DNA of 32,000 bases from Mycobacterium leprae TN (lineage in GTDB: Bacteria > Actinomycetota > Actinomycetes > Mycobacteriales > Mycobacteriaceae). The stretch spans positions 2,370,001 through 2,402,000 of the forward strand of contig NC_002677.1 of NCBI RefSeq assembly GCF_000195855.1. Reading direction: 5' to 3'. The position numbers and the translations under genes are program-made. Under the pieces are notes generated by a model. The model searched no databases and was not told the origin of the DNA. It was given only the letters and a program-made list of their open reading frames with translations. Each line of letters opens with the position of its first letter. The stretch's first letter is position 1. Of the stretch, positions 3,340 to 24,400 are shown in pieces.

Positions 3340-3426
3340 ATGATGTCGGTGACGACCACCGCAATTGGGGGAGAACCCTTTGCCTGTGCAGCGGATACAG
3401 CTGAACATCACCGGGATGTCCTGTAG
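3340..3426 (+). pseudogene. ctpA: Orphaned ancestral 5' end of ctpA: start codon plus a frame-scrambled HMA metal-binding loop
   Basis: AGGAGG at 3325-3330, then ATG at 3340 nine nt later. This frame reads MMSVTTTAIGGEPFACAADTAEHHRDVL and stops at TAG 3424-3426. The expected HMA text [14 protein letters not shown] lies in a second frame (GTG 3386 to agt 3425-3427). ACAKRVE lies in the third frame (3429-3449). Confidence 0.7.
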
Positions 3427-5727
3427 TTGCGTGCGCCAAACGGGTGGAATAACTTGCCCAACAAGCTGTCGGACTTTTCGACGTTAGTTAATTCCGCCAC
3501 CCGAGTGGCGGCGATTAACCTCAGCGAGGTCACCCAGACCGCTGAGGTATGTGAGGCGGTCCGTCGAGCAGCACTGTGCACAGATGGCGGTGAGGCCTTG
3601 CAACGCAGGCAAGCCGACGCCGATAACGCACGATATCTACTGATTCGGTTAGCGGTCGCTGCCGCACTCTTCGTGCCCCTAGCCCACCTGTCGGTGATGT
3701 TCGCTGTGCTGCCCAGCACCCACTTCCCCGGCTGGGAATGGATGCTGACCGCGCTGGCCATTCCGGTCGTGACTTGGGCGGCGTGGCCATTTCATCGAGT
3801 AGCGATACACAACGCACGCTATCACGGTGCTTCCATGGAGACACTCATCTCGACCGGGATCACCGCCGCCACGATATGGTCGCTCTACACCGTGTTCGGC
3901 CATCACCAGTCCACAGAGCACCGCGGCGTTTGGCGGGCACTGCTGGGCAGCGACGCCATCTACTTCGAAGTCGCCGCAGGCATCACGGTATTCGTGCTGG
4001 CAGGTAAGTATTATACGGCTCGTGCCAAGTCACACGCGAGCATTGCGCTGCTGGCCCTGGCAGCGCTGAGCGCCAAGGACGCCGCTGTTCTGCAGCCTGA
4101 CGGTTCAGAAATGGTCATTCCGGCCAACGAACTCAATGAGCAGCAGCGTTTCGTGGTGCGCCCCGGGCAAACGATCGCCGCAGACGGGCTAGTCATCGAC
4201 GGGTCGGCCACCGTCAGCATGAGCCCGATCACCGGAGAAGCCAAGCCAGTCCGGGTGAACCCAGGCGCACAAGTCATCGGTGGCACCGTGGTGCTTAATG
4301 GGAGGCTGATTGTGGAGGCCGCCGCAGTAGGTGACGAGACACAGCTCGCCGGCATGGTCCGTCTGGTCGAGCAGGCACAACAACAGAATGCCAACGCCCA
4401 GCGGCTGGCTGACCGCATCGCTTCAGTTTTTGTACCCTGCGTGTTCGCTGTCGCGGCCTTGACCGCTGTTGGATGGCTGATCGCCGGGAGCGGACCCGAC
4501 CGAGTGTTCTCGGCCGCAATTGCCGTTCTCGTCATCGCTTGCCCGTGCGCACTGGGACTGGCGACCCCTACCGCCATGATGGTGGCCTCCGGCCGCGGCG
4601 CCCAACTGGGAATATTACTCAAGGGCCATGAGTCGTTCGAGGCCACCCGCGCTGTGGACACTGTCGTGTTCGACAAGACCGGTACGCTGACAACGGGCCA
4701 ATTGAAGGTCAGCGCTGTGACAGCTGCACCGGGCTGGCAGGCTAACGAAGTCCTCCAAATGGCGGCGACAGTTGAATCGGCGTCCGAGCACGCCGTCGCG
4801 CTCGCGATCGCCGCGTCAACGACTCATCGAGAACCAGTCGCCAACTTCCGTGCAGTACCCGGCCACGGAGTCAGCGGCACCGTGGCCGAGCGGGCAGTGC
4901 GGGTTGGCAAACCATCATGGATCGCTTCGCGGTGCAACTCGACCACGCTAGTCACGGCCCGACGTAACGCCGAATTGCGCGGCGAAACAGCGGTTTTTGT
5001 CGAAATCGACGGTGAACAATGCGGTGTCATCGCGGTCGCCGACGCCGTGAAAGCTTCGGCGGCAGACGCTGTCGCCGCACTCCACGATCGTGGTTTTCGG
5101 ACCGCGTTGTTGACCGGCGACAATCCAGCATCAGCGGCCGCTGTGGCTTCCCGTATAGGTATCGACGAGGTGATCGCCGACATCCTACCCGAAGACAAGG
5201 TCGACGTTATTGAGCAGCTGCGCGACCGCGGGCACGTGGTTGCCATGGTCGGTGACGGCATCAACGACGGGCCTGCACTCGCACGCGCCGATCTCGGTAT
5301 GGCCATCGGCCGTGGGACCGACGTCGCGATTGGTGCCGCCGACATCATCTTGGTCCGCGACAATCTCGACGTCGTACCCATAACACTCGACCTGGCCGCT
5401 GCAACGATGCGCACTATCAAATTCAACATGGTATGGGCATTCGGCTACAACATAGCCGCCATACCAATTGCCGCCGCTGGATTGCTCAACCCACTAGTAG
5501 CCGGTGCGGCCATGGCGTTCTCATCGTTTTTTGTCGTCTCAAACAGCCTGCGATTGCGGAACTTCGGGGCCATACTGAGCTGCGGCACTAGTCGGCATCG
5601 GACAGTCAAACGATGGCGTTGTCCACCGCCCACTCGGCTCCGTTCAACTGCGTGTAGTCCTGTGGACGCTTCCCCATTGCGACCCGTCGCACACAGGACG
5701 GGGGTTAAACCGCCGACCCATCGGTAG
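3427..5727 (+). CDS. ctpA: P1B-type (copper-family) cation-transporting ATPase CtpA. The catalytic core is intact and the N-terminal HMA domain is disrupted upstream.
   Basis: 766-codon ORF beginning at TTG directly after a TAG. Motifs read in the translation: ITGEAKP (TGE), [11 protein letters not shown] (CPC), FDKTGTLT (DKTGT), [18 protein letters not shown]. Collinear by eye with M. tuberculosis CtpA (Rv0092). Confidence 0.85.
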
Positions 5728-7361: not shown

Positions 7362-8487
7362 TGTATATTTCTCGAATGCATAGAATGAAAAGCATTACGG
7401 AAAACAAATATCAGAGGAGCGAGTTGTAGGAGATCGCCGCCTTCACAGTGGCTTCCGATGAACTGGAACATGAATTCTGGCCTAGCCTAGCTGGATGGCT
7501 GGATACGCCACATTACGATCACGCATCCCACTGCAAAATTAGATCGACGATTGTGCTCACAGTCACGGTAGAATAAGTTAACAAGCTCACCTTAGTTAGA
7601 TAACGAGACATCGGATCGCTTGAGCCAAATGTACGCCACGAGAAAAAGGATGTCGCGGTCGAACATTGCTGCGAGTTCGCCGCGTGCATATAGCAGCTTA
7701 GGTCTATAGCCGTGACAGCGACCAATTGATGATTGCCGTCTATACTGCTCGGTTTTGAAGAGCACAGCTTGCCACCACAAACTCAGCAAGCTATTGAGCC
7801 GTTTGTCCTTCACAATCAAATTCAGTAGCGCAAATCGCAGAATCAAAGAAATGAGCAAAAAATAAAAGAAATACGCTCAACAACAAAGCGGCAATCGCTG
7901 AATTCGTGCCACCTGTAATTGTGGCTCGGCATGCGATTTAACGTGTGAAGTAGTGTAGCACGGTCGATAGCAGATAGCAACCCCTAGGGTCGACGCTGCA
8001 TCACCAGAATCAAGACCAGTAGGGTGTTCAAGCAACGGGTGCCCGAGGCCGCGCAAAATGAGCAAAGTGATTTGTTGAACATGGCAATCCAAAGTGGAGT
8101 TAGTTGCGTCCGCGAGGCGACGGTCTCCAACGAGTTCTGCCGACTCCAGTTGCTAGACGCACAGGTGCAGCCGCACCCTGGCCGGTGTTTTCATCGATCT
8201 ACTTTAAGACTTTAGGCCGGGAATGCGCTGGCGCCTCAGGCTGCCCCCGCCCAGCTGCGGCGACTGAGCGTTATCAATATCAGCCGCAGCCATAGGTCGA
8301 TGGCGAGTGTCAGCGCGCCCCCGCAGACAATCGAGTGCTGGGCATCACATACGTTATTCCTAGGCAGGGGGAACTTTTTGCGCGCTTTCGCCGACCAACA
8401 CCGGGAAGTGACGGCAAAGCCATGCTTTGAGTGCATACAGTCGAGCGCTCTACACCCATGAAAGGAGGTGAAGCTCTGACAGGCCCG

Positions 8488-9900
8488 ATGTGGATGGCCA
8501 TACCTCCGGAGGTGCACTCGGTTCTGTTAAGTGCTGGACAGGGGGCTGAATCATTGCTTGTTGCCGCTACTCAGTGGCAGGAGCTTAGCAAACAATACAC
8601 TTACGCAGCTGCCGAGCTGACTCGGCTGCTGACTCATGTTCAGGCCACCAGCTGGCGGGGAACCAGCGCCACACGGTTTGTGGCGGCGCATGGTGCCTAT
8701 CTGGTCTGGCTCGAACAAACTTCAATCAACAACGCAATCACCGCTAAACAGCATGAAATCGCGGCAATCGCTTACAGCAGCGCGCTAGCCGCCATGCCCA
8801 CGTTGGCAGAACTTACCGCTAACCGCGCAACTCGTGGTTTCTTGATTGCCACCAACTTCTTCGGCATCAATACCATTCCCATTGCCCTCAACGAAGCCGA
8901 CTACGTTCGGATGTGGGTGCAAGCCGCCGACACTATGGCGACCTACCAGGCCATCAGCGAGGCGGTGACGGCAACAATACTACCTACCCAAGTAGCGCCA
9001 CCTATCCTTGCGCCGGGCAGCGCAACCCAAAACGTCCTGCAGTCCGTACCGGATTGGATTGTTCAACTACTGACGGACATCTTGGATTTTATCGCAGATC
9101 CATACAAATATTTTCTAAGATTTTTCCAACGATTGGGATTCAGACCCGCTATTGCTGTTGTCCTTGCCATTATTGCTTTGCAATTGTACGACTTTCTTTG
9201 GTATCCCTATTATGCCTCGTACGGAATGCTCTTGCTTCCCTTTTTCGCGCCGGCATTGAGCGTCCTGGGTACACTGTCCGTGTTGTGGAACGGACAGCTT
9301 TCAGCCGGACTGCCTCCCAATCCCGCAGGATCTCACCCAGACAATAACGCTGGCCCACGCATCCACGTTGGAGTCGCGCCACCTGCCTCGGCTACTTCCA
9401 GTGGAAACTCATACACGAGCAACTCCGCACCCAGCACATCCGCATCGGCTACGACTGACAACCCCCTATCTTCACCCAGCATCAGATACGCCATACCCGG
9501 CTTGTCGCCACCAGAGGTCAGCTCTGGCCCCAAAGCCGGCACAAAGTCACCTGACACTGCCACCAACACGATCGGGATCACTGCCGCGGCAAGAACAAAC
9601 TCGCCTTCCGCCCGGGCGCACCGTAAACGAGGAAACAAGACCAGAGGTGGCGCACGCGGTTACCGTTACGAATTCGTTGAAGGAACCGCCACCATGGCCG
9701 ATACTGTCGACGCCCCCGACCACTCCGAACCCACGTCGCACACAATAAGTAACCACAGCGCCGGCCCCATCGGCTTTGCCGGCACCGTGCCGACAACCGC
9801 CAGCACTCCCACCGGAATGGCTGCCAGTACAAGCAGTAGCGTCCCACTGCTCCCCACTACCTGGATAACTGGCACCAGCGAAACGGCAGTACACGAATAG
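8488..9900 (+). CDS. PPE-family protein; PPE1/Rv0096 orthologue and first gene of the operon
   Basis: The ORF is open from 8431. The PPE N-terminus MWMAIPPEVHSVLLSAGQG starts at ATG 8488 (or 8494). It has a conserved ~180-aa PPE domain (..NFFGINTIPIALNEADYVRMWVQAA..), then a hydrophobic hairpin and a Ser/Pro/Thr-rich tail. Confidence 0.85.
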   Translation: MWMAIPPEVHSVLLSAGQGAESLLVAATQWQELSKQYTYAAAELTRLLTHVQATSWRGTSATRFVAAHGAYLVWLEQTSINNAITAKQHEIAAIAYSSALAAMPTLAELTANRATRGFLIATNFFGINTIPIALNEADYVRMWVQAADTMATYQAISEAVTATILPTQVAPPILAPGSATQNVLQSVPDWIVQLLTDILDFIADPYKYFLRFFQRLGFRPAIAVVLAIIALQLYDFLWYPYYASYGMLLLPFFAPALSVLGTLSVLWNGQLSAGLPPNPAGSHPDNNAGPRIHVGVAPPASATSSGNSYTSNSAPSTSASATTDNPLSSPSIRYAIPGLSPPEVSSGPKAGTKSPDTATNTIGITAAARTNSPSARAHRKRGNKTRGGARGYRYEFVEGTATMADTVDAPDHSEPTSHTISNHSAGPIGFAGTVPTTASTPTGMAASTSSSVPLLPTTWITGTSETAVHE

Positions 9901-10048
9901 AGAAACTTTCACTAGCTTGTCCGACTGCTTACTCTTCGCATGAGCAAAATGCAACCGATTTTTCATCAAGGAGGTATGGATCGTGACGGCGAGAGATGCT
10001 CAAAGATGTGGACCAAAAACAGTAAGTAAATGAGGAGAAAAAGAATCA

Positions 10049-10918
10049 ATGACGCTCGATGTGAAAGGTGATGGACTTGGTGCACAGGTCACAGGGGTTG
10101 ACCCCAAAAACTTAGACAGTATATCCACCGCCGAAATCCGCAAAATAGTTTATGTCAATAAGCTTGTTGTTTTAAAAGACGTCCACCCAACTCCAGAAGA
10201 ATTTATAAAACTTGGCAGGATAATCGGAGAAATCGTTCCTTATTACGAACCTATTTATCGCCATAAAGATTATCCTGAAATATTTGTTTCTTCTACCGAG
10301 GAAGGGCAGGGTGTTCCGAACACCGGCGCCTTCTGGCATGTCGACTATATATTCATGCCGGAACCTTTTGCATTTTCTATGACTCTGCCTCTTGCGATGC
10401 CCGGACACGACCGCGGGACTCATTTTATCGACCTCAGCCAGGTTTGGGAATCGCTTCCCAACGCTATGAAAGACTCGGTGCGGGGAACGTATAGTAATCA
10501 TTCTCCTCGGCGCTATATCAAAATACGCCCAAGCGATGTTTACCGACCTGTAGGAGAAGTCCTAGCCGAGATCGAAGAGGTCACTCCCCCGCAGAAGTGG
10601 CCTACAGTGATCAAGCACCCGAAGACCGGGCAGGAAATCCTTTACATTTGCGAAGCAGCCACCGTTTCGGTCGAGGACAAAAACGGAAATCTACTTGACC
10701 CGATGGTGCTGCAAGAGCTCCTAACCGCGTCGGGCCAGCTTGACCCCGACTGCAAATCGCTGCTTATACATACTCAACACTACGAGGTTGGTGACGTCGT
10801 CTTGTGGGATAACCGGGCTCTTGTGCACCGGGCGAAACACGGCACGGTCTCGGGCACCTTAATCACGTACCGTCTGACCTTGCTGGATGGCCTCAAGACA
10901 CCGGGATATGCCGTATGA
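10049..10918 (+). CDS. TauD/TfdA-family Fe(II)/2-oxoglutarate dioxygenase (Rv0097 / ScoE / MmaE type; isonitrile-forming enzyme)
   Basis: 289-aa ORF. GAGGAG at 10033-10038 lies upstream of ATG 10049. HxD facial-triad text FWHVDY, with a distal His in ALVHRAKHG. The length matches Rv0097 (289 aa from memory). Confidence 0.85.
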   Translation: MTLDVKGDGLGAQVTGVDPKNLDSISTAEIRKIVYVNKLVVLKDVHPTPEEFIKLGRIIGEIVPYYEPIYRHKDYPEIFVSSTEEGQGVPNTGAFWHVDYIFMPEPFAFSMTLPLAMPGHDRGTHFIDLSQVWESLPNAMKDSVRGTYSNHSPRRYIKIRPSDVYRPVGEVLAEIEEVTPPQKWPTVIKHPKTGQEILYICEAATVSVEDKNGNLLDPMVLQELLTASGQLDPDCKSLLIHTQHYEVGDVVLWDNRALVHRAKHGTVSGTLITYRLTLLDGLKTPGYAV

Positions 10919-11466
10919 GCGCCGAGTTGGCCCCTTCTCTGCAGAACGCGGCGGAATCCACAAACACCTTTCCTATGGCAGAAGATTTGCTTGGCAGCAT
11001 ACTGGAACCCTACTCTTACAAGGGATGCCGCTACCTCATTGACGCACAGTACAGAGCCAGCCCTGATTCGGTCTTCGCTTATGGCAATTTCGGGATTGAA
11101 GAGTCCGCTTACATTCGAGGTACAGGCCACTTCAATGCGGTGGAGCTGATGCTGTGTTTCAATCAGTTAGGTTACAGCGCGTACGCTCAAAGTGTCGTCA
11201 ACAAGGATATTTCCGCACTTCGAGGTTGGTCAATCGCAGATTATTGCAGGAACCAGCTTTCCGGCATATTGATTAAAAACACATCATCGCGATTTAAAAA
11301 GCTGATCAACCCTCAAAAATTTTCTGCACGTTTGCATGTATATGATCTCCGCATCGTCGAACGAACATGGCGCTATCTCCAGTTATCGAACACCATCGAA
11401 TTTTGGGACGATAACGGAGGGTCTGCGATAGGGGAATTCGAGGTCGCGATACTTAACATCCCGTAA
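10915..11466 (+). CDS. fcoT: FcoT-like hotdog thioesterase (Rv0098 / ScoD / MmaD type)
   Basis: 183-aa ORF whose ATG overlaps the upstream stop (ATGA at 10915-10918). The strings YSYKGCRYLIDAQY, GHFNAVELMLCFNQLGYSAY and NPQKFSARL match my memory of M. tuberculosis FcoT almost residue for residue. Confidence 0.85.
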   Translation: MSAELAPSLQNAAESTNTFPMAEDLLGSILEPYSYKGCRYLIDAQYRASPDSVFAYGNFGIEESAYIRGTGHFNAVELMLCFNQLGYSAYAQSVVNKDISALRGWSIADYCRNQLSGILIKNTSSRFKKLINPQKFSARLHVYDLRIVERTWRYLQLSNTIEFWDDNGGSAIGEFEVAILNIP

Positions 11467-11495
11467 TTTACTTGTAGGAGATTCGCTTTACAGCT

Positions 11496-13094
11496 ATGTC
11501 GCACTTACCGCCTACAGTCCTGGAACGGATACTGAAGCAGGCACACGAGCGTCCGGAGGCAATCGCCTTGCGTCGCAGCGACGGGACAAGCGAGCTGCGG
11601 TACGGTCAGCTTGTTGCCGAAGTCAATGGGCTTGCCGCGCATCTTAGTGCTCAGTCGGTTTCTCAAAGATCCCGGGTTCTCGTCATTTCGGACAACGGTC
11701 CCGAGACATACCTGTCGGTGCTGGCTTGCGCGAAGCTCGGAGCGATCGCAGTCATGGTGGACGGCAATCTTCCGCCCGCAACCATCAGTCGTTTCAGCGA
11801 AATCTGTGACCCCAGTGCGGTCCTTGTCGCGCGAGAGTGCAGAATAGACTCTTCCTCGCTGCCGGAAATACTACACTCAATACCGGCCATAACGGTCAAT
11901 ACCACCGCTGATGCAACGTATTCCGCTTGCTCGTTGGATATAGATTATTTAGCCGGTAACCTAAACTACGGCACCGATGACCCGTTGGCGATGACCTTCA
12001 CCAGCGGTACAACCGGCGAGCCAAAGGCCGTGCTGCTACCCAATCGCACCTTCTTTGCTATTCCAGACATTTTACGGGAAAAAGGTCTGGCCTGGATCGA
12101 TTGGGTCGTCAACGAAACCACCTACTCACCTCTGTCGGCGACGCATATCGGCGGCCTCTGGTGGATACTCAACTGTTTAATGCATGGAGGGTTATGTATC
12201 ACCGGCGGTGAGCACACGTCGTCGTTAACGGAGGTTCTTAACGCGAATAAAGTCGCAACAACATGCCTAGTTCCAACCCTTCTTTCGAAACTGGTTTACG
12301 AACTGAAGTTCGGCGATGTGGTGACTCCGCCGTTGCGACTAATTGTTTACGGTGGTTCGCGGGTAATTGCAGCTGATGTGCGATTTATTGAAGCTGCGGG
12401 TGTGCGCACCGCACAGTTCTACGGTTTGAGCGAAACGGGCTGCACCGCCTTGTGTTTACCAACCGATAATGGATCAATCTCCAAAATCGAGGCTGGCGCT
12501 GTTGGACGTCCATACCCTGGTGTGGAAGTGTATCTGGCAGATCCAAATGGTGGCGGACCCACTGTCGCAGACACTGCTTCTTCCGCATCCTTCGGCACGC
12601 TGTGGATTAAATCACCAGCAAACATGTTAGGGTACTGGAATAATCCGGAACGCACCCGAGAAATTCTAGTTGACGGGTGGGTGAACACCGGCGACCTTGT
12701 GGAGCGACGCGAGGACGGTTTCTTCTATATCAAAGGAAGATCCTCGGAGATGATCGTCTCCGGTGGAGTCAACATTGTGCCCGATGAGGTTGATCGCATC
12801 GCCGAAAGCGTTTCGGGCGTTGGTGAGGCCGCATGCTACGAAATACCCGATGCGCATTTCGGAGCGCTAGTCGGTTTGGCCGTAATCCCATCGGCAGAGC
12901 TGAACGAGTCAACAGCGATCGAGCTCAAACGAAGGATTGCGGCTCGTTATCGGCGTGAGTCGGAATCGATGGCGCGCCCGTCTAAGATCGTGATCGTTGC
13001 GGATATTCCTCGCACGCAGTCCGGCAAAGTCATCCGTGCAACACTAGCAGCAGCGCTGAACGGAGAGCAACTCGGAATGGTCGTTCGTGACTGA
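11496..13094 (+). CDS. fadD10: Fatty acyl-AMP ligase FadD10 (Rv0099 / ScoC type)
   Basis: 532-aa ORF with AGGAG upstream. Adenylate-forming motifs FTSGTTGEPKAV, YGLSETG, GDLVERREDGFFYIKGRSSEMI and PRTQSGKV. Collinear with M. tuberculosis FadD10. Confidence 0.9.
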   Translation: MSHLPPTVLERILKQAHERPEAIALRRSDGTSELRYGQLVAEVNGLAAHLSAQSVSQRSRVLVISDNGPETYLSVLACAKLGAIAVMVDGNLPPATISRFSEICDPSAVLVARECRIDSSSLPEILHSIPAITVNTTADATYSACSLDIDYLAGNLNYGTDDPLAMTFTSGTTGEPKAVLLPNRTFFAIPDILREKGLAWIDWVVNETTYSPLSATHIGGLWWILNCLMHGGLCITGGEHTSSLTEVLNANKVATTCLVPTLLSKLVYELKFGDVVTPPLRLIVYGGSRVIAADVRFIEAAGVRTAQFYGLSETGCTALCLPTDNGSISKIEAGAVGRPYPGVEVYLADPNGGGPTVADTASSASFGTLWIKSPANMLGYWNNPERTREILVDGWVNTGDLVERREDGFFYIKGRSSEMIVSGGVNIVPDEVDRIAESVSGVGEAACYEIPDAHFGALVGLAVIPSAELNESTAIELKRRIAARYRRESESMARPSKIVIVADIPRTQSGKVIRATLAAALNGEQLGMVVRD

Positions 13095-13323
13095 GACAGC
13101 ACGGGAAAGGATTCTCACGGCTGTCTGTGAGGTGTTGTACATAGCAGAATCAGATTTGGTTGACGGCGATGAAACCGATCTTCGCGACCTCGGGCTAGAC
13201 TCTGTTCGGTTCACGCTCTTAATGAAGCAACTCGGTCTGAGCCAAGAAGCTGAGATGCAATCCAAATTGATGGACAATTTTTCGATTGCAAACTGGGTTC
13301 GCCAGCTGGAGAGTTCTACGTGA
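13087..13323 (+). CDS. Acyl carrier protein (Rv0100 / ScoB type)
   Basis: 78-aa ORF. GTG start at 13087 overlaps the fadD10 stop by 8 nt. The phosphopantetheine-site text is LRDLGLDSVRF (GLDS). Confidence 0.8.
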   Translation: MTETARERILTAVCEVLYIAESDLVDGDETDLRDLGLDSVRFTLLMKQLGLSQEAEMQSKLMDNFSIANWVRQLESST

Positions 13324-16300
13324 CGGCGCCAAACACACGTCGCGTCGATCGTGTTCCCTTGAGTCGATCTCAGCAGAACATTTACAACGGAATGTTGCAG
13401 GACAACGATCCCGCTTTGTATTTTATCGGTAAAAGCTATCGATTCCACCAGCTGGAGCTGTCGGTGTTCCTGGCGGCTCTGGAAGCAACGATCCTCAAAA
13501 ACCCTGGGCAACTTTGCGTTCTTGAGGCGCCCTCGACAGAGGGTGACTATCCGGATCTCGTGCCGAGGCTGCAGTTCGGCGACATCGTGCGCGTGCGGTC
13601 CGACGAACAGCCGCAGACAGACAGTCGTGACTACGACCTTATGCACGCCTGGTCTCCTGACATCCTCGCCAAGCCACTCGTGCGGTACACCGTGCGGACC
13701 GACAAGAACGGCTTTGTGGCACGTCTCGATGTCTTCACCCATCACATACTGGTTGATGGCGGCGCGATTAGGATCATTGAGGAAAATTTGGCACATCACC
13801 TTGACACCGATAATCGACTCGAGATCCCTTGTATCCGACAAGCTCTGGACAAACTTGCAGAAGCACACCGTCGTGAGGCGACCAAGGTGGAGGAATCGCT
13901 ACAGCGTCTGGCCAATGTCGTGCAACGTGAGCTAGCCGACGAAGTGCGTAACGGTGGGTATGGTCAAGTCTCAAACGACGCCCCCGGGAACGCTGCCCGG
14001 GGAGTGCTTCACGAATCAATGATAATCTGCGGTAAGGCATTTGATAATATTATCGCCTTGTCAGAGACTAAACAGGTGCCACTTAACATATTGGTGGCCA
14101 CGGCGGCAGTAGCAGTGGACGCTAGCCTTAGGCAGAGCACCGAGGGCCTGCTGGTTCACGCTGTGGACAACCGCTTCGGAGATCCCTATCTGGACGTTGC
14201 TACATGCCTGGTCAATTCGGTTGCACACTCGATCCGTTTTCCTCCATTTGCGTCGGTGCAAGATGTCGTCCGAACACTTGACCGGTCCTACGTCAAGGCA
14301 ATTAGACTCCGCTGGCTTCGCGAGGAATATTACCGACGAATATATTTGGCGCTCAACCAGACATCTCACATTGAGGCTTTGACGCTCAATTTCATACGCG
14401 AGCCATGCGCGCCCGGCCTTCGCCCTTTCTTGTCGGAAGTACCGACGGTGACGGATATCGGTCCGGTCGAGGGCATGACCGTGGCTTGTGTTCTGAACGA
14501 AGACGAGCGCACACTTGATCTGTCGATCTGGAACAGAGTAGATCTGCCCCAGGGAAAGTCATGTACCCGTGTCGCAAAACGAATCGCTGCAGCGTTGGAA
14601 TTGATGGCAGCGGCGTGGGATCAGCCGATCGCCATGATTGTCAACGAATGGTTTGGGATCAGTTCAGACGGTGCCCTCTGCCTAGGTAATGAAGTTACCC
14701 AGACAACGCGACCACTGGCTCCGGCATGGTTTCTGGACCCTGGGGGAAGCGTTCACCTGACTGTTGACAAACGTCGCTACGTCCATCCATGGATTGCCTG
14801 GCTGGTAAGGGGCAGCGTCGTGCCAGGTGACGTGCTGGTGTTCACTGACGACAACACGGACAAGACCATCGACCTCTTGATCGCGTGCCATCTTGCGGGC
14901 TGCGGCTACAGTGTCTGTGACACTGTAGCCGAGGTTCCCTTGCGGGCGAAGGCGATTACCGACCACGGTGGTGGTGTCTCTGCCCGCGTGATCGATGTGG
15001 CTGCTACCCAGCTCGCAGTGACCCCGGATAACGAGCAAAGCAAGCTCGCTGACAAGCTTATTAAGCAAGCAGCACAAGATATTTCACTAGCAGACAAAAC
15101 CGCGTACATCATGCCGACATCAGGTTCAACCGGGCAGCCCAAACTCGTCCAAGTTTCACACGGGTCGCTTGCGCTCTTTTGTGACGCGGTGAGAAACGCA
15201 TATGGGTGGGGAGCACACGACACCATACTCCAGTGCGCGCCATTGACATCGGACATCAGTGTCGAGGAGATCTTTGGTGGAGCGATTTGTGGATCGAAGT
15301 TGGTCCGATCCACCGCCATGAAAACTGGTGATCTAGCGGAACTCGCACGAGATATCTTCGTGCAGAGGGCAACAGTCATCGACCTACCGACCGCAGTGTG
15401 GCATTTGCTGTGCGACCACAGCGACGCGATTGACGAGATCAACCGTTCTTGCCTTCGACAGATCGTCATTGGGGGTGAAGCCGTTCGTCCCTGCGCTGTC
15501 GACAAGTGGATTGATTCCGGTGCTTCACAAGGTATTTCACTTATGTCGACCTATGGACCGACAGAGACTACGGTCGTTGTCACGTATTTGCCGATCGTCT
15601 GCGCTCCGATGACCGTCGAGAGTGACGCTCGCCTCAGGCTGGGCTGGCCGATAGTGCCCAACACGGTGTTCATCGCCTTCGGCGAACTCGTTATCGTTGG
15701 TGATTTGGTCTCTGTTGGCTATCTCGGGATCGATAGCCGCAACTTCGGCACTGTGACCACCACGGACGGTTCGTGCCGTCGCGCGTTTGCTACTGCCGAC
15801 TGTGTGATCCTCGATGACGAGGGTTTTCCGGTGTTCTCCGGACGCAAAGACGCCGTCGTCAAAATCTCCGGCAAGCGTGTCGACACCGCCGAGTTAATTC
15901 GGCGTATCTCCACGGACCCTAACGTCTCCGATGTTGCTGTCGAAGTTTACAACGGTCGTCTCGGAGTGTGGTTCGAGACGAAGCTGACCCGCGAAGGCGT
16001 CGACGATGCTGCGGCAGCGACACGGAGCAGGCTAATTCTTGCGAGCTTGGGAGTGTCCTCGTTTTTCGTGGTAGGCGTGCCGTGTATTCCGCGGAAGCCT
16101 AACGGGAAAATTGACCGCGACAACCTGCTGGTGATGCCCCAGCTTGTCGACTCTGTACAAAACTATGCCGGGTCGGGTGAGGGGGCAGCCGGTCTCGCGG
16201 AAATCTGGAGTCGGCACCTAGGCAGGGCTATCCTCCCGGACTCATCGCTACTCGATGAGGGGATCGGCTCGGTGGATCTCATCAGGATACTTCCCGACAC

Positions 16301-17525
16301 TCGTAGACATCTGGGTCGGCACCTCTCGCTTCTGGATCTAATCAGCGCCGATAACGCCGCCAACCTGACTGCCGCGCAGACAGCCAATGTATGGATGGAC
16401 GTCGGCACCGCCGCCGAGATAGAACGTGATCTTGCTTCACTGTGCAGGCAACGAAACGCTACGGAGTTCAGCGTCAAACAGACCCGGAATAGCCACCAAA
16501 AACAGGCGATCGTCGTGCTGGGCGCGTCGGGAATTTTGGGCACTGGCTTTGCCCAAGCAGTCCTCGATCTAAGACAGTCAGGAGTGTTGTGTCCCGAGGT
16601 GGTCTTGGCTACGAGGGCGAGACTCCCCGAAGGCGATCCATGGACAGCGCTGCAAGGCGTTGATGGGGTTCGGATCGAACGTATCTCTTTTGAGAATGGC
16701 CCTGGAGAGCTGGAGGCACTAATACGTGACACTGACGCCGGAACCCTGGTGAACGGTGTCGGCAATACCAACATGCTAGTGCCATACCGTGAACTGCGGC
16801 TGGCCAACGTAGAGCTGGTTTCCGCGATAGTCGATATATGCGCGAGTTATAGTACCAGGTTGGTACATTTGTCGTCATTCGTCGTCAATGCGGATGTCAC
16901 TGTGCCTCAGGTCACCGATCCCCGTGAAACGCCTTATCCGTATGCGGCATCCAAGTCACTCGCGGAGCTAGTCGTTGCCGGATCACCATCTGCGCTCGAT
17001 TTCACCATCGTGCGCCTGCCCCGGGTACTTGGCGAAGACTATCAATTACGCAATTCCTCTGACATTCTACTCTCGATTGTTGATGCCTGTATTGCGTTGC
17101 GCGCCTACCCTTCCGCAACAGTGACGGAAGAAGTCACTACCGGCCGAGCCGCGGCGAAGGCGATCTTGGGCGTGGTGTCGGCGTTAGCTAGATCGGGTCA
17201 GCTGGGGAGCGGAATTTCCGTGGTACGTGGCGAGGCGGTGGCATACGCGGATTTTCTCAGTGAGTTCGCTAGCGATGAACTCAATATGGCGGAGTGGAAG
17301 TATCGACTGGATCAAAGCGACTGGGCGAAGAGAAATCCACGAAGGTGGTCGGTGATCGATGCGTGGTTCACCTTGGGTATGATGTTCGAGATGCGATCCT
17401 ACGCAGAATATCCGACCATGGCCCTCGGCGTCGAGTCCGTCGCCGAGCTTGCCGCGCCACCAGAGTCGATTCGAGCCCTACTAGCGCACGGATGTTCACA
17501 GCCACTGAAATATACTGGCAGATAG
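13320..17525 (+). CDS. nrp: Non-ribosomal peptide synthetase, single module C-A-T-R (Rv0101/nrp orthologue; MmaA-like architecture)
   Basis: 1401-aa ORF. GTG start overlaps the ACP stop (GTGA at 13320-13323). Motifs: HHILVDG (aa 141-147), YIMPTSGSTGQPK (A3), STYGPTETT (A5), GRKDAVVKISGKRV (A8), PRKPNGKIDR (A10), carrier GIGS (Ser984), GASGILG (aa 1068-1074), and Y1208-x3-K1212. Confidence 0.9.
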   Translation: MTAPNTRRVDRVPLSRSQQNIYNGMLQDNDPALYFIGKSYRFHQLELSVFLAALEATILKNPGQLCVLEAPSTEGDYPDLVPRLQFGDIVRVRSDEQPQTDSRDYDLMHAWSPDILAKPLVRYTVRTDKNGFVARLDVFTHHILVDGGAIRIIEENLAHHLDTDNRLEIPCIRQALDKLAEAHRREATKVEESLQRLANVVQRELADEVRNGGYGQVSNDAPGNAARGVLHESMIICGKAFDNIIALSETKQVPLNILVATAAVAVDASLRQSTEGLLVHAVDNRFGDPYLDVATCLVNSVAHSIRFPPFASVQDVVRTLDRSYVKAIRLRWLREEYYRRIYLALNQTSHIEALTLNFIREPCAPGLRPFLSEVPTVTDIGPVEGMTVACVLNEDERTLDLSIWNRVDLPQGKSCTRVAKRIAAALELMAAAWDQPIAMIVNEWFGISSDGALCLGNEVTQTTRPLAPAWFLDPGGSVHLTVDKRRYVHPWIAWLVRGSVVPGDVLVFTDDNTDKTIDLLIACHLAGCGYSVCDTVAEVPLRAKAITDHGGGVSARVIDVAATQLAVTPDNEQSKLADKLIKQAAQDISLADKTAYIMPTSGSTGQPKLVQVSHGSLALFCDAVRNAYGWGAHDTILQCAPLTSDISVEEIFGGAICGSKLVRSTAMKTGDLAELARDIFVQRATVIDLPTAVWHLLCDHSDAIDEINRSCLRQIVIGGEAVRPCAVDKWIDSGASQGISLMSTYGPTETTVVVTYLPIVCAPMTVESDARLRLGWPIVPNTVFIAFGELVIVGDLVSVGYLGIDSRNFGTVTTTDGSCRRAFATADCVILDDEGFPVFSGRKDAVVKISGKRVDTAELIRRISTDPNVSDVAVEVYNGRLGVWFETKLTREGVDDAAAATRSRLILASLGVSSFFVVGVPCIPRKPNGKIDRDNLLVMPQLVDSVQNYAGSGEGAAGLAEIWSRHLGRAILPDSSLLDEGIGSVDLIRILPDTRRHLGRHLSLLDLISADNAANLTAAQTANVWMDVGTAAEIERDLASLCRQRNATEFSVKQTRNSHQKQAIVVLGASGILGTGFAQAVLDLRQSGVLCPEVVLATRARLPEGDPWTALQGVDGVRIERISFENGPGELEALIRDTDAGTLVNGVGNTNMLVPYRELRLANVELVSAIVDICASYSTRLVHLSSFVVNADVTVPQVTDPRETPYPYAASKSLAELVVAGSPSALDFTIVRLPRVLGEDYQLRNSSDILLSIVDACIALRAYPSATVTEEVTTGRAAAKAILGVVSALARSGQLGSGISVVRGEAVAYADFLSEFASDELNMAEWKYRLDQSDWAKRNPRRWSVIDAWFTLGMMFEMRSYAEYPTMALGVESVAELAAPPESIRALLAHGCSQPLKYTGR
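13347..14639 (+). other. nrp: nrp condensation (C) domain
   Basis: HHxxxDG is encoded at 13740-13760. The boundaries are approximate and were set by eye. Confidence 0.65.
14757..16124 (+). other. nrp: nrp adenylation (A) domain
   Basis: Core motifs A2 (HLAGCGYSVCD), A3, A5, A6 (GELVIVGDLVSVGYLG), A8 and A10, read in order. The boundaries are approximate. Confidence 0.7.
16182..16379 (+). other. nrp: nrp thiolation (T/PCP) domain
   Basis: LDEGIGSVDLIRIL, with the Ser codon at 16269-16271. The motif deviates from the canonical GGDS/GGHS. Confidence 0.55.
16506..17522 (+). other. nrp: nrp terminal reductase (R, SDR-type) domain
   Basis: Rossmann text VVLGASGILGTGF and the catalytic YAASK. No TE or second C domain follows. 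Confidence 0.7.
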
Positions 17526-17531
17526 CAACTG

Positions 17532-18164
17532 CTAAACGTGAAACAGCAGAACACCGAACATAATAGCCATCCCGGTCGACATCATAGCCTGACCTGAGGG
17601 ATGCAGCGAACAATAGCGACTGAAGCCTGCATTCCTTCGCGATGTCGCGAAAGAACGGTACGTCCAGAAGACTGTCGCGATACAGAAGAACGCGAACCAG
17701 AGCCAGTTTATAATACTGATCCATCCAGGTATTCCGCTTGCCGGCACCACCGTTGTAGTCATGTCCACGCCCAGCATCGACGTATGGGGCGATGTATGAT
17801 GGCCAGTGGCCCAATGGTCGTGAAGATGACTGTCCATGATGACGTACATCCAGACCATAGCCAGCATCATGAGAGCCGGATATGCATATGCCGCCCGTTC
17901 AGCGATCCTTCGGGACGAAACGGTGGCCAAGATCACGAACCACGCCCCAACTAGCCCGCAAAACACCACGGTCCCTGTCGTTGGTAGCTGAGCACCCCGC
18001 GGCCAGGCCATCACTGCCATCGCGATTGCCATCGCAAAATGCAATCCATTGCTCGGAACCAGTGTCCACGGCCGGCGGCAGGCCAAACACGCGAAGCCAC
18101 ATTCGGCAGCGCTCAGCACGAACAGCCCGGTGACAACCCAACGCAGCAGTAAGTCATCAATCAT
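17532..18164 (-). CDS. Small polytopic membrane protein with a His-rich loop; function unknown (possibly DUF5134-like)
   Basis: 210-aa ORF with about 5-6 hydrophobic segments. The loop MDSHLHDHWATGHHTSPHTSM (nt ~17760-17837) has 6 His in 15 residues. The gene is convergent with nrp (6-nt gap) and divergent from the CopD/CtaG-like gene. Confidence 0.65.
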   Translation of the reverse strand: MIDDLLLRWVVTGLFVLSAAECGFACLACRRPWTLVPSNGLHFAMAIAMAVMAWPRGAQLPTTGTVVFCGLVGAWFVILATVSSRRIAERAAYAYPALMMLAMVWMYVIMDSHLHDHWATGHHTSPHTSMLGVDMTTTVVPASGIPGWISIINWLWFAFFCIATVFWTYRSFATSRRNAGFSRYCSLHPSGQAMMSTGMAIMFGVLLFHV

Positions 18165-18276: not shown

Positions 18277-20256
18277 ATGCAGACTGACGAGCCGACCGGA
18301 ACAGCGACGTCAGCTATACGGATTCCCCCGCTGATCTCCTTGAGAACCACACTGATGGTGGCTGGCCTGCTGGGTAACGTGGTCGCCGTTGCCGCCTACG
18401 GACTGTTTTCGCGAACTGAGCGTTATGGCGCTGTCGGCAATCCGGATCCCGGAAGTTTCATCGGCGTTGCCGAACCCGTGGGGTACTTCGGTGCGTCGCT
18501 GTCAAGTGCGCTGTGTCTTGGAGCATTGATTTACTTCGTGATGATGGTCTGGCCGCAAGCAGACGGCTTGATCGATGCTCAGGCTTTTCGGATTCACCTT
18601 GCTGAAGAGCGTGTTTCGATCGGCTGGCTGGCGTTTGCACTGACGATGGTGGTGGTTCAGGCTGCTAACGACTCCGGTGTAACACCGGCTGAGCTTCGAA
18701 CTGGCGCAGCACTATTCAATGCCATTACAACTTCGGAGACCTCACGGGCTTGGATCGTTGTGACGATCTGTGCGTTGCTTGTTACGTTGACGCTGCGAGT
18801 CATCATCCGATACTCCGACCACTTTGTGCTGCTGATCCCCGCAGTGATTGGTGTTATCGCGACCGCGGTGACCGGTAACGCAGGGCAGGGACCGGACCAT
18901 GACTACGCCACCAGCGCTGTGATTGTCTTCGCACTCGCCATTGCCGCATTGAGCGGGCTCAAGATTACCGCTGCGCTGACGGAGGTGACGCCAAGCCGCG
19001 CTGTGCTGATTGTGCAAGTTGTGTGTGGGGTGCTCGCGCTAGCGTATGGAGCCGAGCTGGTCTATCTACTTAGCCCGGGCGCGGCGATGATCGATTCGGA
19101 CTTCGGTCGGCTCGGTCTGGTGGCCGGAGTGCTGGTGACCTTGGTGTGCTTCTCTGACTGCTGGGCGTTGGTCATGGGTCGGCCGCACTCGGATCACCGG
19201 ACACGTCTTACCGCACTGGCCATGATGGCCGTCACGGCGGCGACGGCGGCAATGTCTGTTCAAACTGCGCCGCGATTCCTCACCCACAGGTTCACAGCCT
19301 GGGACGTTTTTCTGGGCTACGAGCTGCCGCAGCCACCTAACATTGTTAGGTTTTTCACCGTGTGGCGGTTCGACAGCCTCATTGGAGCTACTGCCATCGT
19401 CCTCGGGATCGGATATGTAGCGGGCTTTGTCCGTGTGCGGCGTGCCGGCAACACTTGGCCAGTGGGGAGACTGGTGGCGTGGTTGACTGGGTGTGTCGCA
19501 CTGGTATTCACCAGTAGCTCAGGCGTGCGAACGTACGGTTCGGCGATGTTCAGCGTGCACATGGCCGAACATATGACGTTGAATATGTTCATCCCGGTCC
19601 TCCTTGTTCTGGGCGGTCCGGTCACCTTGGCGCTTCGTGCTTTGTCCGCGGCTGGTGATGGACAACAACCCGGACCACGTGAATGGCTAACATGGCTAAT
19701 GCACTCCTCCGTTACGGCCTTTCTTTCCCACCCGGTCACAAACTTCATCCTGTTCGTGGGGTCGCCGTACATCGTTTACTTCACACCGCTGTTCGATACC
19801 CTGGTTCGCTATCACTGGGGACACGAATTCATGGCCATCCACTTCTTGCTGGTAGGATATATCTTCTACTGGGCAATAATTGGTATCGATCCAGGGCCCC
19901 GACGACTCCCCTATCTGGCACGAATTGGATTGTTGTTTGCAGTGATGCCATTCCACGCCTTCTTCGGGATAGCGTTAATGACAATGACATCGGCAATCAG
20001 TGCCGAATTCTACCGCTCCGTCAATCTGCCCTGGCTGGCAAGCATTGACGCTGACCAGCATATAGGTGGAGCGATCGCCTGGAGCGCAACGGAATTACCT
20101 GTAATCATCGTCATAGTGGCGCTGATGGCCCAGTGGGCACGCCAGGACCATAGAGTCGCCGTCCGTGAAGACCGGCATGCGGACAGCACCTACGCCGATG
20201 ACGACCTAAATGCATACAACGCGATGCTACGAGAGTTGTCCCGGATGCGTCGATAG
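18277..20256 (+). CDS. Large integral membrane protein: CopD-like N-terminal half fused to a caa3-type CtaG (cytochrome oxidase assembly) like C-terminal half; Rv0102 orthologue
   Basis: 659-aa ORF that is hydrophobic throughout. The CtaG-family text [28 protein letters not shown] is encoded at ~19555-19640. Later strings are [18 protein letters not shown] and MPFHAFFG. The size and position (between nrp and ctpB) match Rv0102. Confidence 0.8.
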
Positions 20257-20299
20257 ACAAGACCACCCGTTGTCGATGATACGACCTGACGCCCAGGCA

Positions 20300-23599: not shown

Positions 23600-24400
23600 C
23601 TACTAGCTTACAAGTGCAACCGCAGGCGGCTTTGACAAAGCACCCGCAGTTAGCCGGGCCCGCGGTCCGCGCGTTCCCGCAACCACTCCCGCTGGCGAAG
23701 GACAATGCCGCATCGACGACATGCCCATGACCTGGTACGTAGATGGAATCGAGGCCACCAGTTACGACTAATCGTTCAACGTTGCCGGCCACGCGGCTAC
23801 ATCGGAATCGGCGTCGACTGCGGGGTCGACGGACTCCTCGACCAGATCACCGGTAAAACACCACAACCGCGCCGCTGTCCGCGTCCATGCGAGGTACCAC
23901 CGCAACTAGATCCGAAGTGGTGTGTCCACGGCCCCAATGATGAGCAATGGTCACACTCCGGTCGCCGAAATTGATGACAGCGTCGTAGAGTCCGTGGTGT
24001 GGCGGGAGCATCGCCGCATAGCGGGTCGGTAGTCGACGACAGGTATTCGACCCACCTGAGGTGCACAGTGCATTTCAACTCCGACACAAACAGAATCGCC
24101 TAGGATGTTGTCGAAGTTCTTGTGCGTCAACACAACACGGAAGATCGGACTGCTGACAAGCTGCCAAACGTCGGTGTCGATCGCAGCCGCTTCGGCGAGC
24201 GTGGTGCTCGTGTCGACCAGCACTGCACCGGCATGGCACGCACAGCATCAGCCCGACTGTGATGTCGCAGACGGAAAGAGTCGATATGTCGGGTGTTTCC
24301 GACGTCGTGTACACATCTCGCGGCATCTTGACCAGGCAGCCGTTGTCCACGGAGGCTGGTGGCTGACGAACCGCAGAACCGTCAACACATCTACCAGCTG
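23600..24400 (-). pseudogene. MBL-fold metallo-hydrolase relic
   Basis: Minus-strand fragments across three frames: GAVLVDTSTTLAEAAAI..RVVLTHKNFDNILG (a decayed THxHxDH motif), ..VTIAHHWGRGHTTSDLVAVVP.., ..LDSIYVPGHGHVVDAA. The boundaries are approximate. Confidence 0.55.

Follow-up and report, generated by a model that had tools for sequence, protein, structure and literature searches.

The window analysed here, 32,000 nt of Mycobacterium leprae TN (NC_002677.1, positions 2,370,001-2,402,000), contains six consecutive uninterrupted open reading frames on the plus strand at 8431-9900, 10049-10918, 10915-11466, 11496-13094, 13087-13323, and 13320-17525, exactly as the first-pass annotation had claimed. 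These are the already annotated genes ML1991-ML1996, the ppe1-nrp operon of the isonitrile lipopeptide type. Exact protein identity was found for ML1992-ML1996, ML1998, ML2000, and ML1987 as well as for ML1991 and ML1997. In addition to the PPE gene, the operon comprises five co-oriented genes encoding an Fe/2OG isonitrile synthase, an FcoT-type enzyme, an acyl-ACP ligase, an acyl carrier protein (ACP), and an NRPS with a terminal reductase domain, and the gene order is identical in about 50 orthologous loci. The PPE, TauD, FcoT, AMP-binding, PP-binding, and NRPS A-T-R domains that had been proposed were all recovered, whereas Pfam Condensation was unmatched at the N-terminus of the NRPS. The proposed equivalence to Rv0096-Rv0101, mmaA-E, and scoA-E is borne out by ScoE-type and FadD10 NCBIfam equivalogs scoring above their cut-offs, by Rv0097, Rv0098, and FadD10 of M. 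tuberculosis as the closest solved structures, and by 62% identity of the NRPS over its full length to MmaA of M. marinum (1401 and 1416 aa, respectively). That M. leprae has retained the cluster, with a single-module nrp, has already been published (Harris 2017; Bhatt 2018), and the genomic fact of operon retention is not new.

The first gene is ML1991, the orthologue of ppe1/Rv0096 (8494..9900, plus strand, 468 aa; Pfam PPE, 1.2e-56; dN/dS 0.35, here and below against M. lepromatosis). Its reading frame is uninterrupted, but the start at 8431 given earlier merely marks the longest open reading frame. The gene most likely begins with the ATG at 8494 because the annotated M. leprae protein starts there and the proteins of M. 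haemophilum, whose residue 1 aligns at 8494, and all other orthologues align from this position. About 95 nt upstream of this start lies an ECF-type promoter-like motif, GGGAACTTT-N14-CGACCAAC (8369..8399, plus strand), and nowhere else in the window is GGGAAC-N15-19-CGAC matched exactly. Of 39 orthologous loci, 29 have the same motif in the same place ahead of the PPE gene; the background frequency is 0.015 per 250 nt. The ppe1-nrp operon of M. tuberculosis is inducible by copper starvation and is directly transcribed by SigC (PMC7924339). M. leprae retains just two ECF sigma factors, and SigC is one of them (PMC3544749). Between the PPE and isonitrile synthase genes, AGAAACTTTC-N11-CGACTG (9901..9927, plus strand) may, on weak evidence, represent a degenerate second promoter-like copy. 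Its first hexamer has two mismatches in the window and one in M. lepromatosis, and the stretch is missing from M. haemophilum; of 48 loci, 13 have an exact GGGAAC..CGAC ahead of the ScoE-type gene.

ML1992 (10049..10918, plus strand, 289 aa; dN/dS 0.17) is an Fe(II)/2-oxoglutarate isonitrile synthase of the ScoE/MmaE/Rv0097 type, which reaches 464 bits with the NCBIfam equivalog NF049937 (cut-off 400), aligns without gaps to the Rv0097 structures (526 bits), and matches the ScoE structures with 268 bits. Residues Y65, Y70, H97, D99, R122, K158, H260, and R275 (Rv0097 numbering) are retained and cover the Fe ligands HxD...H, the 2-oxoglutarate arginine, and the ligands of the substrate carboxylate and amine. 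The long-chain acyl pocket of Rv0097 and MmaE (M101, F102, H156, C201, T203, G204) is not matched. While F102 and C201 are kept, residues M101, H156, A202, T203, and G204 of both characterized enzymes are replaced by I, Y, E, A, and A, respectively. Position 204 is the gate residue, where M. leprae has Ala but 45 of the 46 other mycobacteria have Gly; the Streptomyces enzymes, which act on short-chain (C4) substrates, have a Phe gate (F239 in ScoE), and a G204F exchange in Rv0097 lowers its efficiency. This remodelling of the acyl pocket probably bears on the chain length of the substrate and not on membership in the pathway.

The next gene, ML1993 (10915..11466, plus strand, 183 aa; dN/dS 0.04), encodes an enoyl-ACP glycyltransferase of the FcoT/ScoD/Rv0098 type. 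The protein matches Pfam FcoT with 2.3e-63 (213 bits) and the Rv0098 structure 2PFC over its full length with 262 bits; the Streptomyces-derived NCBIfam ScoD equivalog gives 113 bits, which is under its cut-off of 250. It has Y33, Y66, and N74, which we take to have a role in the FcoT-type enzyme. ML1994 (11496..13094, plus strand, 532 aa; dN/dS 0.17) is the fatty acyl-AMP/ACP ligase FadD10, with 1087 bits for the NCBIfam FadD10 equivalog (cut-off 726), a gap-free alignment to M. tuberculosis FadD10 (4IR7; 859 bits), and the motifs TSGTTGEPK, YGLSETG, NTGD (containing the equivalent of the essential D408), and SGKV. The ACP ML1995 (13087..13323, plus strand, 78 aa; Pfam PP-binding; dN/dS 0.18) carries the motif LGLDS with the phosphopantetheine Ser39, a column that is at least 90% conserved across 48 orthologues.

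The operon ends with ML1996 (nrp; 13320..17525, plus strand, 1401 aa; dN/dS 0.29), a single-module NRPS with the domain order C-A-T-R. Its start must be the GTG at 13320, rather than the codon-25 alternative of RefSeq, because residues 14-24 are at least 90% conserved. The A, T, and thioester-reductase domains were matched by HMM, whereas the C domain was assigned from its fold. Pfam Condensation (PF00668) gave no match in residues 1-490 even at E-values up to 10, and a precomputed match to PF00668 is found in none of 120 NRPS orthologues, among them the biochemically active MmaA with its similarly divergent C domain. An AlphaFold model of the N-terminal part of ML1996 (pLDDT 70, pTM 0.70) was compared with the PDB by Foldseek, and nearly all of the best 50 matches listed belong to the NRPS C-domain family, with E-values down to 1.5e-19 and TM scores of 0.55-0.70, spanning condensation, starter-C, heterocyclization, and X domains. 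Furthermore, the HHxxxDG motif is present as HHILVDG at residues 141-147, with H141, H142, D146, and G147 unchanged throughout 28 sequences. The predicted fold and this motif together identify the N-terminus as a C domain despite the Pfam miss. ML1996 also carries the motifs A3, A4, A5, A8, and A10, Ser984, GASGILG, and YAASK. The specificity code DIEDVGTVVK was read off the alignment with MmaA, and the same mapping returns the published MmaA code DIEDVGSVVK. The code falls between those of two enzymes shown to activate L-Lys, namely MmaA, from which it differs by one conservative exchange (S to T), and ScoA (DTEDVGTVVK), with which it shares T at position 7. Compared to M. lepromatosis, there are no indels in the 4206 nt of the gene, and dN/dS is even over the domains. 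Two exchanges at otherwise invariant positions, R330L and R828C, are common to M. leprae and M. lepromatosis.

Neighbouring genes of the operon overlap by ATGA at 10915-10918, by 8 nt at 13087-13094, and by GTGA at 13320-13323, as had been described, and these stop/start overlaps predict coupled translation. The first-pass annotation had further taken tight coupling as a sign of selection in M. leprae, which does not hold because the overlap architecture is inherited across the family. The 8-nt FadD10/ACP overlap is found in 44 of 47 orthologous loci and a 4- or 14-nt ACP/NRPS overlap in 31. The overlaps go back to the ancestor of the entire family and are not peculiar to the M. leprae genome.

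All functions of the M. leprae operon are assigned through orthology, and the pathway steps are inferred from the reconstituted M. marinum and Streptomyces systems. FadD10 would adenylate a 2-enoyl fatty acid and then load it onto the ACP. The FcoT/ScoD-type enzyme would add glycine to the β-carbon, and the ScoE/Rv0097-type Fe(II)/2-oxoglutarate enzyme would oxidize and decarboxylate the glycyl group to an isonitrile. With its single C domain, the one-module NRPS would attach two isonitrile chains to both amino groups of a lysine held by the T domain, before the R domain would release a bis(3-isocyanoacyl)lysinol. The closest counterpart is found in M. marinum, in which mmaA-E and ppe1 (MMAR_0261) have the same gene order and MmaA is likewise a single C-A-T-R module. 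This cluster makes di-acylated lysinol isonitrile lipopeptides, as known from biochemistry, and is genetically needed in low copper. Rv0096-Rv0101 of M. tuberculosis is syntenic, including the equivalents of Rv0092 (ctpA), Rv0093c, Rv0102, and Rv0103c (ctpB). However, its nrp is bimodular (7539 bp compared to 4206 bp), the second module being predicted to use Phe, and its product therefore differs from the one predicted for M. leprae. The scoA-E cluster of S. coeruleorubidus and the SF2768 cluster of S. thioluteus share the five enzyme types and their chemistry with M. leprae but contain no PPE gene.

Since M. leprae and M. lepromatosis diverged, the six genes have remained intact and subject to purifying selection, while most of their neighbours decayed. 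Pooled dN/dS is 0.24 (95% bootstrap interval 0.20-0.29; 0.04-0.37 for the individual genes), which is separate from the value of 0.66 (0.47-0.88) for the flanking relics. At the nucleotide level, the genes are 0.91-0.95 identical to those of M. lepromatosis, compared with 0.84 for the relic zones. Only one frame-breaking indel was found in the six genes (8871 nt), at the extreme 3' end of fadD10, whereas adjacent relic zones have 42 in 2924 nt, a rate at which about 127 would be expected in the operon. All six genes are full length when compared with about 50 mycobacterial operons (39 orthologues matched the PPE gene in length and 46-49 the five biosynthetic genes), and M. leprae departs at none of 612 columns that are invariant in all other species. 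The catalytic motifs checked are kept across the operon, and neither hidden truncations nor lost catalytic residues were found in any of the six genes. It is very improbable that the reading frames are intact by chance or that a recent inactivation elsewhere, such as a dead promoter or a missing partner, has left the pathway non-working in M. leprae. The altered acyl pocket of the isonitrile synthase, the loss of the metal-binding domain from the neighbouring ctpA, and the fact that an M. leprae product has never yet been reported would fit such a scenario. It is opposed by the near absence of frame-breaking indels, the dN/dS interval, the invariant positions, and the conserved promoter motif. 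Moreover, the exact sequences of the M. leprae proteins turn up on 146-277 assembled contigs, and ML1996 mRNA has been detected in skin lesions of type 1 reactions, where it is among the ten most up-regulated genes (PMC10083373; array signal). The best explanation, which we hold with high though not full confidence, is that the M. leprae ppe1-nrp operon is an intact and selected pathway of the mmaA-E type for a predicted diisonitrile chalkophore.

The strong purifying selection proposed earlier is real with respect to the relics but no stronger than on adjoining intact genes, for which dN/dS is 0.23 (ctpA), 0.26 (anti-sigma), 0.24 (CtaG-like), and 0.22 (ctpB). Downstream of nrp, ML1997 (17532..18164, minus strand, 210 aa) encodes an intact DUF5134 membrane protein (Pfam DUF5134, 8.9e-43) with a dN/dS of 0.41 and four indels compared to M. 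lepromatosis; its equivalent in M. haemophilum likewise adjoins the CtaG-like gene. This latter gene is represented by ML1998 (18277..20256, plus strand, 659 aa), which encodes an intact membrane protein of the Rv0102 type with a Caa3_CtaG cytochrome oxidase assembly domain (3.9e-86) and has no indels. At least ten relics had been claimed between 20.3 and 32 kb. Eight were verified by frameshifts and/or stops, namely PEP mutase, Lactamase_B, Zn-ADH, NMO, a 232-aa hypothetical protein, DUF4262, furA, and katG; ten are plausible, but the count stops at eight. One weak hint of a nitroreductase was also seen in this stretch. Absent from the first-pass annotation was an intact gene within the decayed region, ML2000 (ctpB; 21317..23569, minus strand, 750 aa), which encodes a P1B-type ATPase with an intact HMA domain as well as E1-E2_ATPase and Hydrolase domains (Pfam). 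The ctpB gene of M. tuberculosis is induced by SigC together with ppe1-nrp and aids growth in low copper. In ML1987 (ctpA; 3260..5727 including an upstream motif, plus strand), the ATPase core is intact and the N-terminal HMA domain is broken: the region 3371-3460 is spread over three frames and has a stop in both M. leprae and M. lepromatosis, and Pfam HMA gave no match in M. leprae ctpA. The remaining intact genes around the operon, for CtpB, the CtpA core, and an assembly factor of the CtaG type, are copper-related.

In other mycobacteria, the diisonitrile is a Cu(I)-binding chalkophore whose use requires PPE1. The suggested role in the acquisition of copper and zinc stands for copper, as nrp, fadD10, and ppe1 have a copper-specific chalkophore role in M. 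tuberculosis and M. marinum, but not for zinc in these organisms (PMC9600254). It is nevertheless conceivable, though unlikely, that the M. leprae operon serves zinc homeostasis according to the 'kupyaphore' model, in which case the link between copper and the oxidase would be wrong. A zinc role has been published for the diisonitrile lipopeptides of M. tuberculosis (PMC8872721), zinc accumulation was lower in an mmaA-E deletion mutant of M. marinum, and a structural paper from 2026 still describes the identity of the metal as 'in debate'. In contrast, the cluster is induced by starvation for copper and not for zinc in M. tuberculosis and M. marinum, and mutants are sensitive to limitation of copper and not of zinc and are rescued by a copper-binding synthetic diisonitrile. 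The copper-related genes next to the operon (the CtaG-like gene and P1B ATPases with HMA domain) also speak against zinc.

For the chalkophore pathway as the preferred explanation, the main job of the M. leprae product may be to supply copper to the bcc:aa3 oxidase. The chalkophore keeps up bcc:aa3, and its loss is far worse, and synthetically attenuating, without cytochrome bd (PMC12140626). Cytochrome bd serves M. tuberculosis as a back-up oxidase but has been lost from M. leprae, as the first-pass annotation had stated and the literature confirms (PMC8888226). The rationale follows from Buglino 2022/2025 together with this known loss, and no paper stating it for M. leprae was found in the literature. 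If it is true, the diisonitrile would be indispensable to a bacillus without cytochrome bd, whose single respiratory oxidase depends on copper. Sequence cannot prove this rationale, since many other mycobacteria conserve the operon equally well. It is intact in M. uberis and M. haemophilum, and its conservation extends to at least 50 mycobacterial species that cover all lifestyles, environmental and fast-growing mycobacteria among them, so retention alone cannot separate a need caused by bd loss from general copper acquisition. Retention is also not specifically explained by bd loss, since the operon has about the same dN/dS as the intact genes beside it and as the free-living pair M. szulgai/M. 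angelicum. The operon may therefore be kept as in most mycobacteria, for copper acquisition under host or environmental scarcity, with the absence of bd being incidental; this is a realistic possibility, to which we give rather less than even chances. The operon, its overlaps, and the promoter motif are common to about 50 species of Mycobacterium, Mycolicibacterium, Mycobacteroides, and Segniliparus, and the leprae lineage shows no sign of extra constraint. General copper acquisition is compatible with the chalkophore explanation and drops just the special link to bd. As the chalkophore defect is strongly aggravated by bd loss in M. tuberculosis, some added dependence is expected in an organism without bd.

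Promoter-like motifs were also found at both ATPase genes. About 80 nt upstream of ctpB, a search with a relaxed pattern found GGGAAC-N16-CGGCTAAC (23649..23678, minus strand), which is suggestive only of a promoter; its second element is kept in M. haemophilum and its first is not. Before ctpA, the window contains GGAAACTT..CGACC (3260-3287, plus strand), which in M. haemophilum is found as an exact GGGAACTT..CGACC.

Translation of the window yielded ORFs identical to annotated M. leprae proteins, as established by exact-sequence look-up. The ppe1-nrp operon encodes the PPE protein ML1991 (from ATG 8494), the TauD/TfdA dioxygenase ML1992, the FcoT family protein ML1993, the fatty acid-activating enzyme FadD10 (ML1994), the ACP ML1995, and the peptide synthase ML1996 (nrp). 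All six ORFs listed by the first-pass annotation are present and unbroken where it had placed them. Exact matches were also obtained for ML1997 (DUF5134; 17532-18164, minus strand), ML1998 (cytochrome oxidase assembly protein), ML2000 (ctpB), ML1987 (ctpA), and ML1988 (zf-HC2 membrane protein). HMM searches against Pfam and NCBIfam assigned the operon ORFs to the expected families, and the NCBIfam equivalogs for ScoE-type oxygenase/decarboxylase and FadD10 both exceeded their curated cut-offs. The nearest solved structures are those of M. tuberculosis Rv0097, Rv0098, and FadD10, with ungapped alignments for Rv0097 and FadD10 and one gap for Rv0098. When species-representative genomes were searched with FadD10, this operon turned up in at least 50 mycobacterial loci; the best FadD10 matches came from M. 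lepromatosis (92%) and M. uberis (85%).

All three overlaps between stop and start codons (ATGA, 8 nt, and GTGA) can be read in the sequence. They had been taken as an argument for selection, but 44 of 47 loci have the 8-nt FadD10/ACP overlap. Overlaps of this kind are thus family-wide and ancestral, and a sign of selection peculiar to M. leprae can be ruled out. For nrp, the RefSeq record WP_231846804 (1377 aa) places the start at the ATG of codon 25 and so leaves out 13320-13391 (plus strand). In the orthologues, NRPS residues 14-24 (LSRSQQNIYNG) show at least 90% conservation, which makes the GTG at 13320, overlapping the stop codon of the ACP gene, the better start.

By orthology with reconstituted systems, FadD10 would load a 2-enoyl fatty acid onto the ACP, to which glycine would be added by the FcoT-type enzyme. 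The glycyl group would subsequently be converted into an isonitrile by the Rv0097-type enzyme. The one-module NRPS would then acylate both amines of lysine and reductively release the product as an alcohol.

Hidden decay of the NRPS had to be considered, as this protein shows no Pfam condensation domain even at E-values up to 10 and only a weak, partial match for the A domain. However, a precomputed Pfam C-domain match is present in none of 120 orthologues, including MmaA from M. marinum, the C domain of which is biochemically active according to its published reconstitution. Thus, divergence of the C domain is a trait of the family. An AlphaFold model of residues 1-490 (pLDDT 70, pTM 0.70) aligned in Foldseek with solved NRPS condensation domains at E-values down to 1.5e-19 and TM scores of 0.55-0.70, and the motif HHILVDG at residues 141-147 lies in invariant columns. 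With none of 212 invariant columns changed and a C-domain fold predicted, hidden decay was ruled out. A truncated nrp, suggested by its 1401 aa compared to 2512 aa in M. tuberculosis, was likewise rejected: in mycobacteria other than the M. tuberculosis complex nrp normally has a single module, and in most orthologous loci the NRPS (about 1380-1450 aa) aligns with the M. leprae protein in one piece. The check for lost catalytic motifs also came out negative, with A3 (TSGSTGQPK), A4 (SDISVEE), A5 (YGPTE), A8 (GRKDAVVKISGKR), A10 (NGKID), the carrier serine within GIGSVD, and the R-domain motifs GASGILG and YAASK all present. The specificity code derived from the alignment is DIEDVGTVVK, and the same mapping returns the published code of MmaA (DIEDVGSVVK); MmaA and Streptomyces ScoA (DTEDVGTVVK) both activate L-Lys.

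Across the six operon proteins, M. leprae departs at none of the 612 columns that all other species share unchanged. Setting the leprae/lepromatosis/uberis clade aside reveals a few changes common to this clade, such as R330L and R828C in the NRPS and P214S and V308F in FadD10. The two NRPS changes, R330L in the C domain (14307-14309) and R828C (15801-15803), are common to M. leprae and M. lepromatosis, at positions that are invariant in all other orthologues examined. In the A7 motif, R828C alters the residue directly after the conserved Asp (ATADRV becomes ATADCV).

The contrast between operon and flanks proposed in the first-pass annotation is real. Compared to M. lepromatosis, dN/dS is 0.35 for the PPE gene, 0.17 for the isonitrile synthase gene, 0.04 for the FcoT-type gene, 0.17 for fadD10, 0.18 for the ACP gene, and 0.29 for nrp, where it is even over C, A, and T-R. 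Pooled, the six genes have a dN/dS of 0.24 (bootstrap 95% interval 0.20-0.29), whereas codons recovered from two of the flanking relics give 0.66 (0.47-0.88). Nucleotide identity with M. lepromatosis is 91-95% for the operon genes and 84% for the relic zones. Only one frame-breaking indel was found in 8871 nt of the operon, located at the 3' end of fadD10, and none in the 4206 nt of nrp, compared to 42 in 2924 nt of the relic zones. The constraint on the operon is ordinary: it is level with that on the neighboring intact genes (ctpA core 0.23, zf-HC2 0.26, CtaG-like 0.24, ctpB 0.22), and operon dN/dS in the free-living pair M. szulgai/M. angelicum is at the same level.

Harris et al. 2017 and Bhatt et al. 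2018 have described the cluster as conserved in M. leprae and syntenic with that of M. tuberculosis, with a single-module nrp of 4206 bp. The genomic finding is therefore already known, with the operon annotated and discussed before, and it had been read correctly. What is added here is quantitative proof that the operon is under selection while its flanks, including furA and katG, decay neutrally.

Relics were identified by comparison to genes of M. haemophilum (loci L081 and L082), which is the closest relative whose genome has not decayed, and by scanning frames with masked stops. Frameshifts and stops relative to M. haemophilum mark the relics of DUF6545 (6706-7861, minus), PEP mutase (20336-21022, minus), Lactamase_B (23703-24235, minus), Zn-ADH (25004-25791, plus), a 232-aa hypothetical protein (27852-28364, minus), and DUF4262 (29906-30340, plus); several of both interrupt furA (30381-30838, plus) and katG (from 30848 to the window end, plus). 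In the unassigned stretches (24236-25003, 25792-27851, and 28365-29905), the plus-strand frames were scanned. At about 26768-27422 (plus), a relic of a nitronate monooxygenase gene is divided between two frames, and a weak, sub-threshold nitroreductase hint lies at 29010-29129 (plus); neither is syntenic with the M. haemophilum locus. Of the ten or more relics claimed for 20.3-32 kb, which is a plausible number, eight were verified, plus the nitroreductase hint. The furA and katG relics lie about 13 kb downstream of the operon, which means that the catalase-peroxidase system decayed while nearby copper genes survived.

Intact genes around the operon are ctpA, its zf-HC2 neighbor, the DUF5134 gene, a gene for a CtaG-domain protein of the Rv0102 type, and ctpB, and much of the surviving content of the region has ties to copper handling. 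At 8369-8399 (plus), about 95 nt upstream of the PPE start, lies an ECF-type motif, GGGAACTTT-N14-CGACCAAC; GGGAAC-N15-19-CGAC has no other exact match in the window. Of 39 orthologous loci, 29 carry this motif at the corresponding place before the PPE gene, compared to a background rate of 0.015 per 250 nt. Related copies are found upstream of ctpB (23649-23678, minus) and ctpA (3260-3287, plus), and a degenerate copy precedes the isonitrile synthase gene (9901-9927, plus); the general form is GGGAAC(TTT)-N15-18-CGAC(T/C)A. The ppe1-nrp and ctpB promoters of M. tuberculosis are nearly identical, and transcription from both depends directly on SigC (PMC7924339). The motif set fits SigC-dependent transcription of ppe1-nrp and ctpB, and these candidate elements are to be regarded as a lead rather than proof. 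In a scan of 8.0-20.5 kb, the counts of Sigma-70 promoters and intrinsic terminators equaled the shuffled expectation.

The isonitrile synthase ML1992 retains its catalytic and polar substrate ligands. In the leprae clade, however, the alkyl-chain pocket as defined on Rv0097 is altered by M101I, H156Y, A202E, T203A, and G204A (codons at 10349-10351, 10514-10516, and 10652-10660). Among 46 other mycobacterial orthologues, 45 have Gly at residue 204; M. haemophilum has G204F. G204 has been described as the gate for chain length, and in Streptomyces ScoE, which takes C4 substrates, the position is occupied by Phe. Because this gate is changed in the leprae clade, the chalkophore of the leprosy bacillus may carry acyl chains of different length. 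No earlier report of this pocket change was found.

The operon had been linked to acquisition of copper or zinc and its retention to the copper supply of aa3 as sole terminal oxidase. M. leprae cannot be cultured and has a single terminal oxidase, and because of this reliance it is exquisitely sensitive to telacebec. [quoted passage not shown] The chalkophore maintains bcc:aa3 function, and its loss is far worse without cytochrome bd (PMC12140626), which M. leprae lacks, as had been claimed (PMC8888226). The copper-to-aa3 rationale thus follows reasonably from what has been published. In type 1 reaction lesions, ML1996 mRNA can be detected and is up-regulated (PMC10083373). A literature search found no prior statement that M. 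leprae needs the chalkophore because bd was lost, although absence from such a search is not conclusive. The sequence cannot establish this rationale, since the operon is equally conserved in many other mycobacteria. Most of these are presumed to keep bd. Retention alone is no proof of a link to bd, and the physiological hypothesis is sensible and testable but unproven.

If the chalkophore does keep the oxidase metallated, the isonitrile-forming enzymes, for which we know of no human counterpart, would offer a second drug route to the same weak point in M. leprae and M. ulcerans. A more far-reaching reading, which we consider rather unlikely, is that M. leprae makes its own lysinol diisonitrile with different, probably shorter acyl chains (G204A and the four neighboring changes), indispensable for copper loading of its only terminal oxidase in a cell without bd. 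The surviving block of ECF/SigC-type promoters, ppe1-nrp, the DUF5134 gene, the CtaG-like gene, ctpB, and the ctpA core would then, just as tentatively, amount to a minimal regulon for copper supply and to a drug target that is synthetic-lethal with the bd loss that has occurred naturally. Experimental leads are the promoter motif, the altered chain-length pocket, and a ctpA without its metal-binding domain.

This N-terminal heavy-metal-associated domain of ctpA is destroyed (3371-3460, plus, at the 5' end of the gene): GMSC is followed by a frame shift, a stop, and a second frame shift, and the same holds for M. lepromatosis. The ATPase core at 3460-5727 is intact, and ctpB retains its HMA domain. 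ML1997 lies between nrp and the CtaG-like gene, an arrangement shared with M. haemophilum, and is the least constrained intact gene here, with a dN/dS of 0.41 and four indels compared to M. lepromatosis, two of which are not multiples of three. In M. haemophilum, a second PPE gene (520 aa), which has its own GGGAAC..CGAC motif, directly follows nrp, and a GH10 glycosidase gene adjoins ctpB (14392-15954 and 20121-21287 of L081 compared); the window has neither, and no relic of them was detected at 17526-18276 and 20257-21316. In M. simulans (11827-16044 of its locus), the NRPS gene contains in-frame TGA codons, and at least one of M. simulans and M. simiae has an in-frame TGA in the PPE gene, which may reflect sequencing error or local decay. 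Scanning for Rfam families and tRNAs gave no matches anywhere in the window. Upstream of ctpA, a stop-free stretch at 1338-1898 (minus) matches a PEP mutase/isocitrate lyase-family protein of M. haemophilum with 27% identity. The interval 1472-3426, in which the longer ORFs tested had no Pfam match, contains 23 frame-breaking indels compared to M. lepromatosis and is probably another relic zone.
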